Below are positions 34,948 through 50,716 of a stretch of DNA of 53,515 nt, one piece after another; within the stretch, counting starts at the first letter, position 1; each line of letters begins with the position of its first letter. The translations under genes were made by a program, and so were the position numbers. The stretch lies in NCBI GenBank assembly GCA_051747585.1, contig JBNJGH010000008.1:1-53515 (forward strand). Reading direction: 5' to 3'. The notes beneath the pieces were generated by a model. It did not search any database, was not told the origin of the DNA, and worked only from the letters and a program-made list of their open reading frames with translations. The stretch is from Candidatus Rifleibacteriota bacterium. Lineage in GTDB: Bacteria; Muiribacteriota; Ozemobacteria; Ozemobacterales; Ozemobacteraceae.

Positions 34948-35286
34948 TTATTTTTGCTCAAGTTCGCCATCAGATTGAGATTCATCTTCGTCAATAAAGT
35001 AATATCCACATTTTTCGGCAGTGTGCGGAAACACATCGGACTCGTTAAATGGGTAAATTTTACAAACATCAGGCTTGGTCTCATGAATGCTGCAAAGTGA
35101 TTTTCCATCTTTTTCATACAAAAACGGACAGGGAAATGAGGAGCGACAGCATGCGCCACAACCTTTACATTCTCCTCTTCTTCTTTTCAAACCACTTTCA
35201 ACAAAATCTTTTTTTAACAACAACAAATATCTTCTTTTGATCTGCATCTTAAAAGAAGTAATTACTTTTTTATATGCCTTTTTCAT
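34948..35286 (-). CDS. YkgJ-like CxxCxxCC cysteine-cluster (putative Fe-S/Zn) protein
   Basis: CKGCGACC...CPFL...CSIHETKPDVCKIYPF...CGY. Confidence 0.8.
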   Translation of the reverse strand: MKKAYKKVITSFKMQIKRRYLLLLKKDFVESGLKRRRGECKGCGACCRSSFPCPFLYEKDGKSLCSIHETKPDVCKIYPFNESDVFPHTAEKCGYYFIDEDESQSDGELEQK

Positions 35287-42718: not shown

Positions 42719-42789
42719 TAAAGCATTCTAAATGTCTTGAAACGGTTTTAACAAACGAATGGAGAATTACTGATCCTGTTCAAATTTTG

Positions 42790-42818
42790 TTGCTTTTGCA
42801 GAATTATCATTATATCAT
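42790..42818 (+). promoter_or_regulatory. Candidate sigma-70 promoter of the BMC locus
   Basis: TTGCTT-N17-TATCAT ending 9 bp before ATG 42828; no SD sequence present. Confidence 0.5.
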
Positions 42819-42827
42819 TGCTTTACA

Positions 42828-43916
42828 ATGACAAAACGACAGCTACTTATAATCACCGACAGTCATAAAGACAGAAGCCGTTTTTTTGCTTCACCTTTCG
42901 GCTTGAATCCTGAAATAACAAAAATTACAGGGGCTTCTTCTCTGAACTATATTTCATTTTCAGGTTTTAAAAGTATTGTCATTGATTCTCCCGGTCTTTA
43001 CCAGTGCTTAAAAAAGATATCACTTGGAATCCGGGACAGCGCAGACACAGAAGCCTTATGGCGCATTTTAAGCAAAAAATCCCCTGCCCCGGTTTTTTTT
43101 CTGGTTGATCGCAAATCTCCACCAACCAGAGAAATGACCAATCTGGATATAGCTTACATCCTTCCTCTGGAATTAAAAGAGATGGGTCAGAAACTATCTG
43201 ATCGTAACGAACAACTTATTACAACGCCTTCTTCCGGCCCTTCTTCAAATAACCTGCTGACCGCAGATGATATAAGACGAATGCACCGCGAAGGCAAAAG
43301 AACTATTAAATCAGAGCAAAAACTGACGTCATGGGCTAAGGAAGTAGCTGATTCTCTGGGTTTGAGTCAATCCACTCATAATACAAAACTCTTACTGAAC
43401 CTTGGCAAAGCTTCGCCCAAAACTCTAGAGAAAATTAAATCAGATGTTTTTGAACTTTCAACCAGATTTCCGGAAATGCTCTTTGTAGTCAACCCCTTGT
43501 GTATAACTGTTTTTAATAAGCTTTTTCCTTCTTTACAAGGGCGAGTAGTATCAACCAGCATTCACTGGGGCGAAAAAGGAGCTTTTACCGGTGAAACTTC
43601 TGCCGCCATGCTTGCAGATCTTCGCTGTGCCGGCGCGATTTTACCCGCGTCCATGCCATACTGCGAATCCACCAATCTTAAAGCTGTTTTAAATCAGGCT
43701 GCCAAATATAATATTGAGTTATTTTCAACTTTTTCCCTTGCGCCTGGTACAGGCTGTGATATAATTGCCACTGGAATTGCCAATGACGTAGCTTTTTCCA
43801 TGACGCCTCTGTTTGATCGCCAAGGCCTGACAGCAGAGGGGCTGCCTGAAACAAAAGCCGTCATTGAAGATATAAAATTTTTCAGGGAATTGCCCTCACG
43901 GAAAGGACATTATTGA
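42828..43916 (+). CDS. BMC-associated fusion: flavoprotein-like region + EutQ-N-like motif + inactive triosephosphate-isomerase-like domain
   Basis: LKKISLGIRDSADTE (aa 61-75); LLTADDIRRMHREG...LTSWAKEVADSLG (aa 143-178); IHWGEKGAFTGETSAAMLADLRC (aa 245-267) without GHSERR or AYEPVW. Confidence 0.7.
   Translation: MTKRQLLIITDSHKDRSRFFASPFGLNPEITKITGASSLNYISFSGFKSIVIDSPGLYQCLKKISLGIRDSADTEALWRILSKKSPAPVFFLVDRKSPPTREMTNLDIAYILPLELKEMGQKLSDRNEQLITTPSSGPSSNNLLTADDIRRMHREGKRTIKSEQKLTSWAKEVADSLGLSQSTHNTKLLLNLGKASPKTLEKIKSDVFELSTRFPEMLFVVNPLCITVFNKLFPSLQGRVVSTSIHWGEKGAFTGETSAAMLADLRCAGAILPASMPYCESTNLKAVLNQAAKYNIELFSTFSLAPGTGCDIIATGIANDVAFSMTPLFDRQGLTAEGLPETKAVIEDIKFFRELPSRKGHY
43738..43765 (+). promoter_or_regulatory. 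Candidate internal extended -10 promoter upstream of pduL
   Basis: TTGCGC-N16-TATAAT with TGn directly before the -10 (TGaTATAAT). Confidence 0.55.
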
Positions 43917-43919
43917 AGA

Positions 43920-44561
43920 ATGGACGAAAATCAGGTAAAAACCATTGTTGCAGAGGTCCTGAAGCATATTGATCTGCAGGACAGAATACAATCCGGTTCC
44001 ATTCCCTGCGGTGTCAGTAACAGACACTTACACGTATCCCAAAAAGATCTCGAAACACTTTTTGGCACCGGTTATGAACTAACTTCGTTAAAAGATCTTT
44101 CCCAACCCAAACAGTTTGCCGCCAAAGAATGTGTCATGATTGTCGGTCGTAAGGGCGTCATTGAAAAATGCCGCATTCTGGGCCCGGTCAGACCCGCCAC
44201 TCAGATTGAAGTATCAACCACAGACTGCTTCAAGCTTGGGGTTAAACCCACGCTCAGAGACTCTGGCGACATTGCCGGCAGCCCGGGTTGTGTAGTAGTT
44301 GGGCCTAAAGGTTCAGTGGTTTTAAACGAAGGCGTTATTGTAGCTGCACGTCATATTCATATGAGTAATAGAGACGCCGAAAAATTCGGCTTAAAAGATA
44401 TGGACAGGATTGCGGTTAAATCCAGCGGTCCCAAGTCTGTAATTTTTAACAATGTTCTAGTAAGAGCAAGCGATAAATACGCTCTTGATTTTCACCTTGA
44501 TACGGATGAAGCTAATGCCGCCGGAATTAAAAACGGCGACATGGTTGAAATAATTGCATAA
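43920..44561 (+). CDS. pduL: PduL-type phosphate acyltransferase with N-terminal encapsulation peptide
   Basis: GVSNRHLHVS, LSQP.QFA, RILGPVR..TQIEVS.TD, RDSGD, GVIVAARHIHM, FHLDTDEANA; N-terminal amphipathic helix QVKTIVAEVLKHI. Confidence 0.93.
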   Translation: MDENQVKTIVAEVLKHIDLQDRIQSGSIPCGVSNRHLHVSQKDLETLFGTGYELTSLKDLSQPKQFAAKECVMIVGRKGVIEKCRILGPVRPATQIEVSTTDCFKLGVKPTLRDSGDIAGSPGCVVVGPKGSVVLNEGVIVAARHIHMSNRDAEKFGLKDMDRIAVKSSGPKSVIFNNVLVRASDKYALDFHLDTDEANAAGIKNGDMVEIIA

Positions 44562-44594
44562 AATTTACGCTTAATAAAATTTTTGGAGGTTGTC

Positions 44595-44891
44595 ATGCAG
44601 GAAGCCCTGGGTATGATTGAAACTAAAGGATTAACAGCACTTATCGAAGCATCTGATGCTATGGTTAAAGCAGCTAACGTAAATCTCGTCGGCTGGGAAA
44701 AAATCGGTTCCGGTTATGTAACTGCATTCGTAAGAGGCGATGTAGCTGCAGTTAAAGCTGCCACCGATGCAGGCGCCGCTGCTGCCAAGAAAATTGGCGA
44801 GCTGGTTAGCGTACATGTAATTCCACGCCCACACTCAAACCTTGATGACATTATGCCAATCAAGGAAATTACCAGCAGCTCCAAGAAATAA
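44595..44891 (+). CDS. BMC hexamer shell protein (BMC-H, PduA/EutM-like)
   Basis: [12 protein letters not shown]...[12 protein letters not shown]...[13 protein letters not shown]...[11 protein letters not shown] 44595 after GGAGG. Confidence 0.96.
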
Positions 44892-44909: not shown

Positions 44910-45191
44910 ATGATACTTGGCCGCGTGTGCGGTACAGTTGTTTGTACCCGAAAAGATAAAAGCCTGGTTGGAATGAAGTTTCTTATTGTCGAAGAGTTAG
45001 ATCTCGACACAAAAAAGCCAACCGGAAAACATGTTGTTGCTTTAGACGCGGTAGGTGCAGGAGCCTCAGAGAACGTTCTTGTCGTATCCGGCAGCTCATC
45101 GAGATTAACCGAACGAACTCTCAAAAAGCCGGCTGATGCGGCTGTTTGCGCAATAGTAGATGAGGTTGTATTCGATAAAGAACGTTCCTGA
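44910..45191 (+). CDS. BMC pentamer/vertex protein (BMC-P, EutN/CcmL family)
   Basis: MILGRVCGTVVCTRKD..L.G.KFLIV...VALDAVGAG..E.VLV.SGSSSR...DAAVCAIVD. Confidence 0.95.
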   Translation: MILGRVCGTVVCTRKDKSLVGMKFLIVEELDLDTKKPTGKHVVALDAVGAGASENVLVVSGSSSRLTERTLKKPADAAVCAIVDEVVFDKERS

Positions 45192-45232
45192 ACTTCTGAT
45201 CAATTTGAAATTATAGATTGGAGTCAGCAGGA

Positions 45233-46645
45233 ATGAGTGTTTCAAAAGAAGATTTGAGCCTTATTATTCAAGAAGTAATGAAAAAGCTCAATACTTCTGA
45301 ATTGAACGCTGGAAACGCCCTGCCCAACAACCCCGGGAAAGGTATTTTCACCAGTGTAGACGATGCTGTGGCTGCAGCTGACCAGGCCCAGAAACAGCTT
45401 AGCGACCTTCCACTAGATACCAGAGAAAAAATAATTGCCAATATGCGCAAAAGATCCATGGAAAAGGTCGAAGAGCTTTCCAGGTGTGCAAACAGCGAAA
45501 CCGGGTATGGTCGCATAGACGATAAAATTCAGAAGAATAAACTCGTAATTGAAAAAACACCGGGGCTCGAAGACTTAAAGCCGATTGCCAGTTCAGGCGA
45601 TAATGGCCTTACACTTGTCGAGCAGGCCCCTTATGGAATCATAGGTGCAATTACACCTTCCACTAATCCGACAGCATCTGTGATCAATAATTCTATCAGC
45701 ATGGTGGCAGCCGGAAACGGTGTAGTATTTGCCCCCCACCCCGCTGCTGCAAAATGTAGTCAGTATGCCATGAGTATATTGAACGAAGCAATAGTCGAAG
45801 CAGGTGGTCCGGAAAATTTACTGACGACAGTAGCCACTCCCAGTATAGAAAATGCTCAGAAAATCATGACCCATCCCGGTATCAGGCTTTTAACAGTCAC
45901 CGGAGGTCCCGGAGTGGTAGCCGCCGCTTCCAAATCTCGAAAAAAATATATTGCTGCAGGTCCCGGTAATCCCCCGGCAGTTGTCGACGAAACGGCAAAC
46001 ATTCGCAAAGCGGCAAGAGATATTGTTTCGGGCGCGGGTTTTGACAACAACGTTCTCTGTATTGCAGAAAAAGAAATTATAGTTGTTGATTCCGTGGCTG
46101 ATGAGCTCAAGAAGCACCTGCGTAACAGTGGAGCCTATGAAGCATCTGTCCGGGAAATTATGCAACTTGAAAAAGCATGCATCGATTCTAAATCGGGCGC
46201 ACCAAACCGCAAACTGGTCGGCAGAAATGCTTCGGTAATTATGGAACAAATAGGGGTTCGAATACCAGAGGATACAAGAATTATTCTCTGCGAAGTAGAA
46301 CCTGATCATCCATTTGTGGTTGAAGAATTACTGATGCCTGTTATTCCACTGGTCAGGGTAAGAGATGTTTATGCAGCCATAGACCTTGCAGTCAAGGTTG
46401 AAAACGGCAACTTTCATACTGCGGTTATGCATAGCAAAAACATTGACAATCTTCACCTCATGGCCCGAAAATGCAACTGCTCTATCTTTGTTAAGAATGG
46501 TCCCAGCTATGCAGGACTCGGCTTTGGCGGCGAAGGATGCACAACTATGACTATCGCCTCCCCTACCGGTGAAGGCATTACTACCGCACGATCTTTTACC
46601 AGACAAAGACGTTGCGTTATAGTTGATTCATTCAGAATAGTATAA
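45233..46645 (+). CDS. CoA-acylating aldehyde dehydrogenase (EutE/PduP family) with N-terminal encapsulation peptide
   Basis: PYGIIGAITPSTNPT, TGGPGVV, AGPGNPP, FDNNVLCIAEK (catalytic Cys), ELLMPV, FVKNGPS, TIASPTGEG; EP-like helix DLSLIIQEVMKKL. Confidence 0.94.
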   Translation: MSVSKEDLSLIIQEVMKKLNTSELNAGNALPNNPGKGIFTSVDDAVAAADQAQKQLSDLPLDTREKIIANMRKRSMEKVEELSRCANSETGYGRIDDKIQKNKLVIEKTPGLEDLKPIASSGDNGLTLVEQAPYGIIGAITPSTNPTASVINNSISMVAAGNGVVFAPHPAAAKCSQYAMSILNEAIVEAGGPENLLTTVATPSIENAQKIMTHPGIRLLTVTGGPGVVAAASKSRKKYIAAGPGNPPAVVDETANIRKAARDIVSGAGFDNNVLCIAEKEIIVVDSVADELKKHLRNSGAYEASVREIMQLEKACIDSKSGAPNRKLVGRNASVIMEQIGVRIPEDTRIILCEVEPDHPFVVEELLMPVIPLVRVRDVYAAIDLAVKVENGNFHTAVMHSKNIDNLHLMARKCNCSIFVKNGPSYAGLGFGGEGCTTMTIASPTGEGITTARSFTRQRRCVIVDSFRIV

Positions 46646-46715: not shown

Positions 46716-48029
46716 ATGGCGAAACACAACATCGAAGAACTTGGTCTTGTTGGCTGTGGAGGAGCGGGCTTTCCTACTCATGTCAAACTTGCCGCCAATA
46801 ATGTTGAAACCATTATTGTCAATGCCGCTGAATGCGAACCGTTACTTCATAAAGATAAAGAAATTCTCAAGAATTTTACCAACGAATTTTTTACCGGCTT
46901 GATTAAAGCAATTGAAATGACGAATTCCAAGCAGGCGTTTATTGGCATGAAGAAAAAATATGCCGACCTGCTAAGCTATGTCGAAAGAGCAATCCCTGAT
47001 AAAAGAATAAAAATGCTGCCACTGGGCGATTTTTATCCGGCAGGAGATGAATACGAACTGGTCTATGAAGCAACCGGTAAACTCATTCCATTTGGCGGTA
47101 TTCCTCTCAATATTGGTTGTGTGGTAGCCAACGTAGAAACTCTGGTTAACCTGGGACTCAACAAACCGGTAACGACAAAATTTATTACTGTAACCGGCGC
47201 GGTTCCTAATCCGGTAACAGTCGAGATTCCTTTCGGAATAACTGTTGCCGAAGCAATGACCTTGGCCGGTTTAAAAGATCTATCGGGTCTGACAATAGTT
47301 GATGGCGGCCCAATGATGGGCAAAATCATTGAAAAAGCCCATGAAGAAATTGTCAGCAAAACCTGCGGAGGCCTGATTGCTCTACCCGATGATCATGTGC
47401 TTATTAGAAAAATGACCCGCAAAGAAAGCGAAAACTCACGTATAGCCCGCTCGGCCTGTGATCAATGCACAGACTGCACTGAGCTATGCCCGAGGGCCTT
47501 GCTTGGCTACCCCATAAGCCCTCATAAAGCTATGAGAACAGCCCAGTTCGCTCCTTATGCCAGCAGCAATTACGCGATAGATTCGATTTTCTGTAGTGAG
47601 TGCGGATTATGTTCTTTATTTTCATGCCCCGAAGATTTGCCGCCCCGTGAAATGTGCCAGAGCGCAAAAAATTATCACCTTTCAAAAGGCGTCAAAGCCG
47701 GAGAATTCAAAGGGGAACCCCAGGTTCACCCTATGCGCTCTGTTAGAAGAGTAAGCATCGAAAGGCTATTAAAAAAACTAGCTTTGCTCGATTACGACAA
47801 AAAAGCTCCTTTCTGCAAAATCAACGCCAGATTTGAAAGAGTTGAGCTGCCGCTTAAAATGCATATAGGCGCCCCGGCTAAACCTGTGGTCAAAGCCGGC
47901 AGCAAAGTAAAAAAGGGCCAGCTAATTGCCGCTATTCCTTCCGGAAAATTGAGCGCTTCTTTACACGCTTCTATTGGCGGACAAATTGAATCGGTCACAG
48001 ACAAGGCAATAACCATTATCAGAGAATGA
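46716..48029 (+). CDS. pduS: PduS-like (RnfC-related) FMN/[4Fe-4S] oxidoreductase
   Basis: GLVGCGGAGFPTHVKL, NAAECEPLL, FYPAGDE, GGPMMG, CDQCTDCTELCPR, CSECGLC...CP, PLKMHIGAPA. Confidence 0.9.
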   Translation: MAKHNIEELGLVGCGGAGFPTHVKLAANNVETIIVNAAECEPLLHKDKEILKNFTNEFFTGLIKAIEMTNSKQAFIGMKKKYADLLSYVERAIPDKRIKMLPLGDFYPAGDEYELVYEATGKLIPFGGIPLNIGCVVANVETLVNLGLNKPVTTKFITVTGAVPNPVTVEIPFGITVAEAMTLAGLKDLSGLTIVDGGPMMGKIIEKAHEEIVSKTCGGLIALPDDHVLIRKMTRKESENSRIARSACDQCTDCTELCPRALLGYPISPHKAMRTAQFAPYASSNYAIDSIFCSECGLCSLFSCPEDLPPREMCQSAKNYHLSKGVKAGEFKGEPQVHPMRSVRRVSIERLLKKLALLDYDKKAPFCKINARFERVELPLKMHIGAPAKPVVKAGSKVKKGQLIAAIPSGKLSASLHASIGGQIESVTDKAITIIRE

Positions 48030-48039
48030 GGTAAGTAAC

Positions 48040-48594
48040 ATGTTATACCAGAATGCAATCGGACTAATAGAACTTTCAAGCATTTCAGTCGGTTATCTTG
48101 TAACTGATAATATGCTTAAAACTGCCTCAGTTGATCTGGTTTTGTCTCGCACGGTTTGTCCGGGAAAATTCATCTGCATGGTCTGGGGTGATGTCGCCGC
48201 TGTTGAAGCCAGTGTTGAAGCCGGAATTCAGATAGGCCAGGGTTATCTGGTAAATGATCTGGTTATTCCAAATCTTCATCCTCAAATTTATCCTGCAATA
48301 ACTGCAACCAATAAAATTGAAGAGACCGGCGCACTCGGAGTTGTTGAGACTTTCGACATAGTTTCAACCATATTGGCTGCTGACGCCTCAGTAAAAGCAG
48401 CCGACATTGACCTTTGCGAAATTAGAATTGCAATGGCAATCGGCGGAAAAGCTTTTTACACAATGACCGGAGACGTAGCTGCAGTTGAAGCCGCAGTGCA
48501 GGCAGGTCTAGAATCGCTCGAGGGCAAAGGTCTGGTGGTTCACCATGTTGTAATACCCAGACCCAGAGAAGAATTGTTTCAGGAGTTCATTTAA
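48040..48594 (+). CDS. pduT: PduT-like tandem-domain shell protein (BMC-T)
   Basis: Two BMC domains; RTVCPGKF with the pore Cys; GDVAAV motifs; VIPRP. Confidence 0.9.
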   Translation: MLYQNAIGLIELSSISVGYLVTDNMLKTASVDLVLSRTVCPGKFICMVWGDVAAVEASVEAGIQIGQGYLVNDLVIPNLHPQIYPAITATNKIEETGALGVVETFDIVSTILAADASVKAADIDLCEIRIAMAIGGKAFYTMTGDVAAVEAAVQAGLESLEGKGLVVHHVVIPRPREELFQEFI

Positions 48595-49058
48595 TGCCTA
48601 AAATAATAATTGGTTCAGACCACGGCGGTTTTCCACATAAAGAAGAATTAAAAAAATACCTGCAATCTAAAAATCTTGTTTTTGATGATATCGGCACTTA
48701 CTCGACAGCTTCTGTCGACTATCCCGACATTGCCTATCTTGTCGCTTCCAGAGTCGCGCAAAACCCGCACAGCCTTGGTATAATTATTGACGGTGCAGGC
48801 ATAGGTTCATGTATGGCCGCCAATAAAGTCCCCGGGGTAAGAGCAGCCTGCTGCAACGATTTATATACTGCAAAAAACAGTCGCGAACATAACCATGCAA
48901 ACGTTTTAACTTTTGGCAGCATGGTTATCGGCACCGGCTACATGAAGCAGATTGTAGACACCTGGCTGGCGACCACGCCCGGGCCCGGGCGGCACGCAAA
49001 TAGAGTTGCAAAAATCACCCAGATAGAAAATATTTTTACAAACAACTCCAGTCAATAA
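48594..49058 (+). CDS. rpiB: RpiB/LacAB-family sugar-phosphate isomerase (DGAGIG variant)
   Basis: IGSDHGGF, VDYPD, DGAGIGSCMAANKVPGVRAA, SREHNHANVL, GRHANRV. Confidence 0.88.
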   Translation: MPKIIIGSDHGGFPHKEELKKYLQSKNLVFDDIGTYSTASVDYPDIAYLVASRVAQNPHSLGIIIDGAGIGSCMAANKVPGVRAACCNDLYTAKNSREHNHANVLTFGSMVIGTGYMKQIVDTWLATTPGPGRHANRVAKITQIENIFTNNSSQ

Positions 49059-49570: not shown

Positions 49571-50716
49571 ATGCGTGCTATATGTATAGTATTAGACAGC
49601 GCTGGTATCGGCCCAATGCCTGATCAGGCAGAATATGGCGATGAAGGCGCTTCAACCATACCAAATCTTGCAAAGGCCGCCGGCGGCATATATATGCCCA
49701 ATATGCAAAAACTTGGCCTTGGTAATATAACCAAAATAGAAGGCGTTGCCCCTGCAGAAAACCCCACAGGTGGTTTCGGCAAAATGCAGGAACTTTCACC
49801 CGGCAAAGACACCACCACCGGCCACTGGGAAATGATGGGCTACAAACTTGAATATGCTTTTCCCGGTTTTCCGGACGGTTTTCCCAAAGACTTCATCGAA
49901 AAGTTCGAAAAAGCAATAGGTCGAAAAACCCTTGGCAATTACCCGGCTTCGGGCACGGCTATAATTCAGGACCTGGGAGACGAACATGTTAAAACCGGCA
50001 GTCCTATTGTTTATACCTCTGCCGATTCTGTCTTTCAAATAGCTGCCCACGAAGAAGTTATACCGGTTAAAGAATTATATGAAATTTGCCAGACCGCCAG
50101 GGATATGCTGCAGCCACCTGATCTGGGCGTAGCACGAGTTATTGCCCGCCCCTTCGTCGGCAAATCAGGAAATTACACAAGAACCGCCAACCGCCACGAC
50201 TTCAGTCTTACACCGGATGAAACGGTCCTGGATATTCTTAAAAGCAAAGGGATCACTACTTACGGAATCGGTAAAATTTACGATATTTTTGCCGGCCAGG
50301 GTGTTGAACCTCATGTAACAACGCAAAACAACGATGATGGTATGAACAAAACCATGCAGGCACTGCAAAAGGTTGATTCAGGCTTTATTTTTACCAATCT
50401 GGTAGATACAGATATGAAATATGGTCATCGTCGAGATGTCGAAGGTTACAAAAATGCACTTGAAACCTTTGATAAATGGCTGGAAAGCTTTATTAAACAG
50501 CTCAAAGTCGACGATTTGTTAATGATAACTGCTGACCACGGGTGTGATCCCACCTACAAAGGCACAGACCACACCCGTGAAGTTGTGCCCCTGCTGGTTT
50601 ATCAGCCGGGCAAACCCGGCAGAGACCTTGGCACTCGCCACGGCTTCTGGGATGTAGCTGCAACCGTAGCCAAACATCTTGGCGTAGATTACCCCAAAGG
50701 CACTCCTGTCATTTAA
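49571..50716 (+). CDS. deoB: Phosphopentomutase
   Basis: IVLDSAGIG, SPGKDTTTGHWEM, ASGT.II, IVYTSADSVFQIAAHE, RVIARPF, NLVDTDMKYGHRRD, TADHGCDP, DHTRE. Confidence 0.96.
   Translation: MRAICIVLDSAGIGPMPDQAEYGDEGASTIPNLAKAAGGIYMPNMQKLGLGNITKIEGVAPAENPTGGFGKMQELSPGKDTTTGHWEMMGYKLEYAFPGFPDGFPKDFIEKFEKAIGRKTLGNYPASGTAIIQDLGDEHVKTGSPIVYTSADSVFQIAAHEEVIPVKELYEICQTARDMLQPPDLGVARVIARPFVGKSGNYTRTANRHDFSLTPDETVLDILKSKGITTYGIGKIYDIFAGQGVEPHVTTQNNDDGMNKTMQALQKVDSGFIFTNLVDTDMKYGHRRDVEGYKNALETFDKWLESFIKQLKVDDLLMITADHGCDPTYKGTDHTREVVPLLVYQPGKPGRDLGTRHGFWDVAATVAKHLGVDYPKGTPVI

Follow-up and report, generated by a model that had tools for sequence, protein, structure and literature searches.

A conserved triosephosphate isomerase-derived adaptor of SPU7-type microcompartments without TPI catalytic residues, and its possible pairing with TpiA

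The sugar-phosphate-utilising (SPU) bacterial microcompartment (BMC) and its subtype SPU7 have been catalogued (PMC8217296; PMC11585597), and the SPU7 list in PMC11585597 holds eight genomes, including AUK22_ and CVV41_. According to the metabolic scheme in the part of that paper available to us, DERA splits deoxyribose-5-phosphate to acetaldehyde, which goes to the dehydrogenase and PduL, and glyceraldehyde-3-phosphate, and pfam00121 matches are treated as working triosephosphate isomerase (TPI). Dead-enzyme scaffolds in compartments also have precedent: the dead GRM aldehyde dehydrogenase, CcmM and the weak SPU RpiB are described there as non-catalytic core proteins. Salmonella EutQ is a shell-cargo linker, of which residues 9-41 associate with the shell (PMC12487888). 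In TPI, loop 3 makes up most of the dimer interface, with Thr75 bonding Glu97 and Asn10 of the other subunit and Gln64 bonding Gly76 of the other subunit, and the T75V and T75N variants have lower activity with dimer stability unharmed (PMC12874384, the review text as available).

The window analysed here is a stretch of 53,515 nucleotides from a Candidatus Rifleibacteriota bacterium (assembly GCA_051747585.1, contig JBNJGH010000008.1, forward strand). It carries a same-strand run of genes for a pseudo-TPI, PduL, BMC-H, BMC-P, aldehyde dehydrogenase, a PduS-like protein, BMC-T, RpiB and a phosphopentomutase-like protein (Table 1). The last we take to be deoB-like, a name given from the sequence and from general family features. 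The DGAGIG motif of the RpiB puts an Asp at the position of the catalytic Cys in the E. coli enzyme, as reported for SPU RpiB, and this protein is possibly a second impaired isomerase of the same operon. A satellite locus on another contig (G000:C28:13723-15829) contains a 506-aa DERA and two further pentamer genes. This DERA has four parts, i.e. an N-terminal helix, a flavoprotein-like domain, a Cys-rich linker with paired CxxC and the aldolase (TIGR00126, E 1.8e-88), and is full-length across most of the same family; PF02441 was found on five of the six sister-family DERA fusions tested, three of them above cut-off. DERA, aldehyde dehydrogenase and shell genes, the SPU set, are thereby divided between the window locus and the satellite, and PTAC, PduS, RpiB, a single BMC-T type and the BMC-P triplet are present as in the available description (PMC11585597). 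AUK22_04355 and CVV41_04940 (P0053, P0014) belong to the pseudo-TPI family. The locus is an SPU7-type sugar-phosphate microcompartment, the subtype being assigned via homologues in two listed SPU7 genomes.

Two further genes were observed apart from this operon. One, outside the main locus and on its own (G000:C44:8833-9180; L009:1363-1710), encodes a divergent BMC-H-like protein that is extended at the N-terminus. At window positions 34948-35286 (minus strand) a 112-aa Cys-rich protein (CxxCxxCC...CP) is encoded, apparent homologues of which are found two to three genes upstream of the module-bearing TPI in L130-L133.

Table 1. Features of the pseudo-TPI gene and its operon in the window
Feature	Residues (aa)	Position	Strand	Remarks
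Pseudo-TPI fusion gene (P0001)	1-362	42828..43916	+	362 aa; first gene of the BMC operon
Degenerate flavoprotein-like (PF02441/TIGR02536-like) alpha/beta domain	1-125	42828..43202	+	Profile alignment, structure model
Variable low-confidence linker	126-140	43203..43247	+	Conservation 0.15; pLDDT <50 at 132-140
EutQ H1/H2- and PduM-like module (LTADDIR...LTxWAxEVAxxL)	141-182	43248..43373	+	Predicted shell-docking
Shrunken TPI-derived TIM barrel	183-362	43374..43913	+	Without TPI catalytic residues
Loop 3 GAFTGE	251-256	43578..43595	+	T254 = TPI Thr75
PASMPY	273-278	43644..43661	+	Replaces catalytic-His motif GHSERR
PduL-type phosphotransacylase		43920..44561	+	PF06130, E 1.8e-77
BMC-H shell protein		44583..44891	+	PF00936
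BMC-P (EutN/CcmL) vertex protein		44910..45191	+	PF03319
Aldehyde dehydrogenase		45218..46645	+	PF00171
PduS/MNdh-like flavin Fe-S oxidoreductase		46716..48029	+	PF01512, PF13375, PF10531, Fer4
BMC-T shell protein		48040..48594	+	PF00936 in two stretches
RpiB-family isomerase, SPU type (DGAGIG)		48594..49058	+	PF02502
Phosphopentomutase-like metalloenzyme		49571..50716	+	PF01676; after the operon in most relatives

The first gene encodes, as a preliminary description of this DNA had proposed, a three-part protein consisting of a flavoprotein-like domain, a EutQ-like module and a TIM barrel. Pfam TIM was matched by aa 197-272 of the barrel with a score exceeding the gathering threshold (E 3.3e-6) and likewise by each of the 40 members of alignment A1, and both TIM-family homology and the (beta/alpha)8 fold were found; the TIM-family enzyme L-erythrulose-1-phosphate isomerase is among the fold matches. 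A TIM-like region had been placed at aa ~186-300 and equated with the N-terminal half of TPI: the fold was correctly recognised, the restriction to one half was not, the barrel being complete but shrunken. For the N-terminal domain, a flavoprotein-like stretch suggested at aa 61-90 was supported by hhalign, in which aa 1-125 aligned with the stand-alone PF02441 family of the genome (P 89.5%, E 2e-6, with 0 of 100 shuffles scoring as high) and the domain also aligned with the DERA-fused flavoprotein domains (E 3.7e-4). At the profile level homology to PF02441 was found (P 89-95%), while no direct Pfam PF02441 match was obtained in 40 members at E up to 1. K63, G67 and D70 are invariant or nearly so in the family, and the domain is modelled with a pLDDT of 91. 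Foldseek returned no match at E <0.001 for it, and its weaker matches were a mixture of receiver domains, Arf GTPases and UbiX/DmrB flavoproteins. The EutQ resemblance seen earlier at aa 143-178 corresponds to positions 3-44 of NF012001 EutQ (E 5e-4), and the module matches the TIGR02536 C-terminus as well; at E 5e-4 to 0.012, and 15-20 bits against a cut-off of 193, this resemblance to EutQ is weak, and full-length EutQ (H1-H4 and cupin) was not matched, only positions 3-46 of 233 being covered.

No Shine-Dalgarno-like run was seen ahead of the start codon (window 42788-42830), the upstream DNA being AT-rich, and the transcript may be leaderless or its start weak. A stand-alone 230-aa protein combining PF02441 with the EutQ/PduM-like module is encoded at G000:C13:13118-13807 (L137:4119-4808, minus strand), distant from any shell gene; it has 30 homologues and probably belongs to the compartment as a satellite component that has escaped recognition.

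The motif set comprised 75 family sequences, 72 of them full-length and three fragments. The altered NWK, the PASMPY in place of GHSERR and the missing AYEPVW reported before are present at roughly the places described, and the loss extends over the whole family: NWK, GHSER, EP(V/I)W, YGGS and GG(A/S)S each occur in 0 of the 75. Columns 190-194 of loop 1 are variable and hydrophobic among the 72 full-length members, and in the catalytic-His motif region His is kept in one, Ser in five, Glu in four and Arg in one. Loop 3 had been singled out as the best-kept part, and indeed GAFTGE is the most conserved 6-mer of the full-length members, followed by TADDIR; GA(F/Y)TGE is found in 72 of 72 (74 of 75 overall, the exception being a fragment that ends before loop 3). 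An ungapped block covering TpiA 60-100 contains 18 positions at which 40 active TPIs, used as controls, show conservation of 85% or more. Seventeen of the control TPIs are family-profile matches, which may inflate the loop 3 conservation of the controls, the family counts being unaffected. Half of the 18 positions are kept (G73, A74, T76, G77 and E78 in all 72 members, M83 in 71, C89 in 70, L84 in 63 and I93 in 53) and the other nine are lost (G63 0, Q65 0, N66 1, G95 0, H96 1, S97 5, E98 4, R99 1 and R100 0 of 72). The catalytic His, the Glu97/Arg98 loop and Gln64 of TPI are thus among the losses. In TPI, Glu77 pairs with Arg98 of the partner subunit. Judged by its sequences, the family keeps the residue that would serve catalysis in a partner, whereas in a homodimer none of the residues meant to receive it would be left. 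Pseudo-TPI is a TPI-derived protein without the TPI catalytic residues, standing outside the active TPI family, and TPI activity is predicted to be absent.

A word-index search recovered 58 proteins, the query among them, the named ones mostly from Riflebacteria. When 1.84 billion representatives were searched with a profile and no index, 33 matches had E up to 1e-10, followed by ordinary TPIs at 1e-7 and weaker, and no longer or catalytically intact three-part form was among the 33 (longest 382 aa). Among 87 genomes of the phylum, 50 besides the source genome belong to its family, and the family alignment matched 37 of these, against 0 of 36 from ten other families. Homologues of the same architecture in other BMC loci, which the preliminary description recommended looking for, lie directly upstream of pduL in all 19 family loci fetched. 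Six of the 13 same-family genomes without the gene are 66-84% complete, and the remaining seven constitute genus g12, in which the gene was found in 0 of 7 genomes and BMC shell domains in 0 of the five searched (G016, G050, G051, G052, G054). Genus g12 keeps PduL, and a short stand-alone DERA was seen in G016. Shell and pseudo-TPI were probably lost jointly in one event, and it looks as if the organelle was lost and the enzymes retained.

Sister families offer a view of the origin of the protein. The operons of G033 and G027 have the same gene order, and the position ahead of pduL is taken there by an intact TPI that bears the EutQ-like module at its N-terminus; four genomes of one other family (G026, G032, G037, G040) have a module-TPI protein outside the fetched BMC locus; all six also have a housekeeping TPI. 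Residues 142-297 align colinearly with the intact module-TPI (154 columns, P 98%, E 3e-13). The simplest history is that a flavoprotein-module gene was fused to an organelle module-TPI gene, after which catalysis was lost; the module could come from either parent. This history rests on synteny and architecture, because the tree left the sister group unresolved, placing the family neither with the SPU TPIs nor with TpiA. In G028, G029, G030, G034 and, weakly, G038 the module is located at the C-terminus of RpiB, and in sister-family loci L081, L082-L087, L089 and L094 RpiB was observed with a C-terminal helix followed by the EutQ/PduM-like module. The module appears to move among TPI, RpiB, flavoprotein and a small protein of 131-141 aa (L090, L092). 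No TPI match was found within the fetched SPU loci of G038 and G029, and local TPI activity is therefore dispensable in some lineages. As a separate observation, loci L080 and L082-L088 (G026, G028, G029, G032, G034, G037, G038, G040) encode a protein of ~700-770 aa with a weak, partial DERA-like N-terminus, preceding the phosphopentomutase gene and mostly just after the SPU DERA; the G034 copy is cut by the contig end. It is possibly another degenerate TIM-barrel protein of SPU compartments.

We put at about even the chance that pseudo-TPI pairs with ordinary TpiA, a partnership already suggested in the preliminary description, and tethers a half-active heterodimer to the deoxyribose-phosphate-degrading SPU7 microcompartment. 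Slightly less secure is the fuller proposal of a dummy subunit, which would have given up its active site together with roughly one quarter of the barrel and would use loop 3 to capture TpiA for the organelle in place of a dedicated organelle TPI. Thr254 and Gly255 of loop 3 would insert into TpiA and complete its active site as in normal TPI dimers, the EutQ-H1/H2-like module would dock on the shell, and the flavoprotein-like domain would oligomerise, its partner being either another copy or one of its homologues in the DERA fusion and in the stand-alone flavoprotein. The recruited TpiA could then turn the glyceraldehyde-3-phosphate released by DERA into DHAP at the organelle, and TPI activity would be kept at the compartment without a dedicated enzyme. 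The intact docking-module TPI in the same slot of the sister lineages is predicted to do the same job.

Pairing with TpiA is favoured over a plain scaffold because loop 3 is invariant while the own active site and acceptor pocket have been lost. Of the 38 genomes that carry the gene, 37 have a full-length TPI match, which further supports the pairing, as does the intact TPI in the same slot of sister lineages. The housekeeping tpiA of the source genome is intact and adjoins pgk (contig C255), and NWK, HSER and AYEP(V/I)W are kept in 24 of 24 TpiA ORFs read from carrier genomes. Also counted in its favour are the result for genus g12, where neither the gene (0 of 7) nor shell domains (0 of 5 searched) were found, and the low dN/dS values given below. 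Engineered inactive TPI heterodimerises with some variants in flies (PMC4816394, as far as its available text goes), which shows feasibility only. Against the pairing, the pocket for the loop 3 of TpiA (the equivalents of Q65, N66, E98 and R99, and loop 1) is remodelled, and a heterodimer would therefore need a new half-interface and must compete with the TpiA homodimer, which is tight. Packing in a homodimer could account for the retention of Gly, Ala and Phe in loop 3, docking could be supplied by the second flavoprotein-module protein of the genome, and the new conserved Trp, Pro and Tyr in the acceptor half could equally fit a homodimer. Evolution faster than that of the neighbours, the unplaced position in the tree, the weak EutQ match and the TPI-free state of some SPU loci were also counted against it.

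A rather unlikely, though still substantial, alternative is a structural linker, in which the dead barrel homodimerises via loop 3 and displays a pair each of docking modules and flavoprotein-like domains, thereby tying the shell to the enzyme core as the EutQ dimer does, with TpiA uninvolved. EutQ does dimerise via its C-terminal domain, its N-terminal helices joining shell and cargo, and non-catalytic scaffolds are known in BMCs, judging from the accessible part of PMC11585597. The family-specific invariants around the old interface (W247 in 66, P273 in 64, P277 in 63 and Y278 in 63 of 72) are those expected of a re-optimised self-interface. Such a linker leaves the invariance of Thr254 and Glu256 unexplained, their usual partners being lost, and a dimer devoid of active sites would give little reason for the Thr to be invariant, as Thr75 of TPI serves the activity of the partner.

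The loop 3 evidence for TpiA binding applies equally to a regulator, which upon operon induction would bind TpiA and lower or relocate cytosolic TPI activity, steering triose-phosphate flux; a heterodimer would have half the sites and an altered acceptor pocket. Retention of Thr75 argues for an active partner, and the docking module and operon slot indicate the compartment, and we regard this role as improbable. A shade more improbable is that the barrel binds a new ligand or catalyses a new reaction through other residues, as a sensor of triose or tetrose phosphates for instance, for which the conserved C267, C310-D311 and FST motif of the barrel, and the isomerase of L-erythrulose-1-phosphate among its fold matches, could be cited. 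The C-terminal face of the barrel has no conserved Lys, His or Glu, however, and the phosphate-binding YGGS / GG(A/S)S motif is missing throughout the family. LerI-type enzymes keep the TPI catalytic set, which also counts against such a role.

The gene is old and under purifying selection, evolving faster than its neighbours. Its dN/dS, measurable in two same-genus pairs (two more were saturated), was 0.21 in one pair, where pduL, aldehyde dehydrogenase, pduS and tpiA had 0.04-0.09, and 0.30 in the second, where the same genes had 0.09-0.23, pduS (0.23) and tpiA (0.19) approaching the value of pseudo-TPI; it is 2-4 times that of pduL and aldehyde dehydrogenase. Recent decay of a functionless fusion, a question the preliminary description had raised, could be suggested by this faster evolution and by the separate building blocks present in the source genome and sister families, but it is highly improbable and largely refuted by the length and architecture shared by all 72 full-length members (median identity 36%, minimum 24%), the dN/dS values and the lack of internal stops in 38 of 39 genome matches.

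We conclude that pseudo-TPI is a real, conserved adaptor of SPU7 compartments, and residue conservation indicates that it probably acts within a TPI dimer as one of the two subunits. The whole barrel, the slot occupied by an active microcompartment TPI in sister lineages and the catalogued SPU7 type had been missed previously. No description of the family as a pseudoenzyme was found in the literature searched, a coverage which excludes most subscription journals. If the pairing is true, an organelle can be loaded with an enzyme that bears no encapsulation peptide, through a dead paralogue that hijacks the interface by which a core glycolytic enzyme dimerises. The engineered heterodimers with inactive TPI would then have a counterpart in nature, and the barrel would be a case of natural minimisation of the TIM fold; two small proteins would suffice for testing the pairing, which would be portable to microcompartment engineering. 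Even as a mere scaffold the protein corrects the SPU7 metabolic scheme, in which the family was probably counted as active TPI. The finding also highlights a mobile EutQ/PduM-like docking module shared among TPI, RpiB and flavoprotein-like carriers.

Compared with the SPU7 BMC as described in the accessible parts of PMC8217296 and PMC11585597, the present system is alike in PTAC, AldDH, PduS, RpiB, BMC-H/T/P, DERA and three pentamers over two loci. It differs from the SPU7 'TPI' as published there in that the TPI domain has no catalytic residues and the extension, given in Table S2 of PMC11585597 as an 'N-terminal tail', defined there as disordered, is predicted to form two folded modules. The published SPU7 tables probably count the pseudo-TPI family as ordinary TPI, as we infer, and the Wallbacteria entry could carry an intact TPI. 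The intact EutQ-module TPIs of sister families have the same N-terminal module on the TPI domain in the same register and share the slot before pduL in two genomes, whereas they keep N(W/F)K, GHSER, AYEP(V/I)W and YGGS and are without the flavoprotein-like domain. With Salmonella EutQ the protein shares a module that matches the shell-associating H1/H2 (EutQ 3-44) and is carried on a dimer-type C-terminal domain, but no H3/H4 or cupin match was found, the C-terminal domain is a dead TIM barrel and the score is far under the family cut-off. Residues 1-182 align over 134 columns with the stand-alone TIGR02536/PduM-like family (PF02441 and module) of the same lineage (P 94.6%, E 7e-8), although the pseudo-TPI domain is shorter, degenerate, without a direct Pfam match and fused to a TIM barrel. 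As in the non-catalytic BMC core proteins of PMC11585597, within the text available, an enzyme fold is retained for organelle assembly after catalysis was lost or weakened. Pseudo-TPI differs from these in that its best-kept element is one that, in TPI, acts in trans on the active site of a partner, pointing to recruitment of the housekeeping enzyme.
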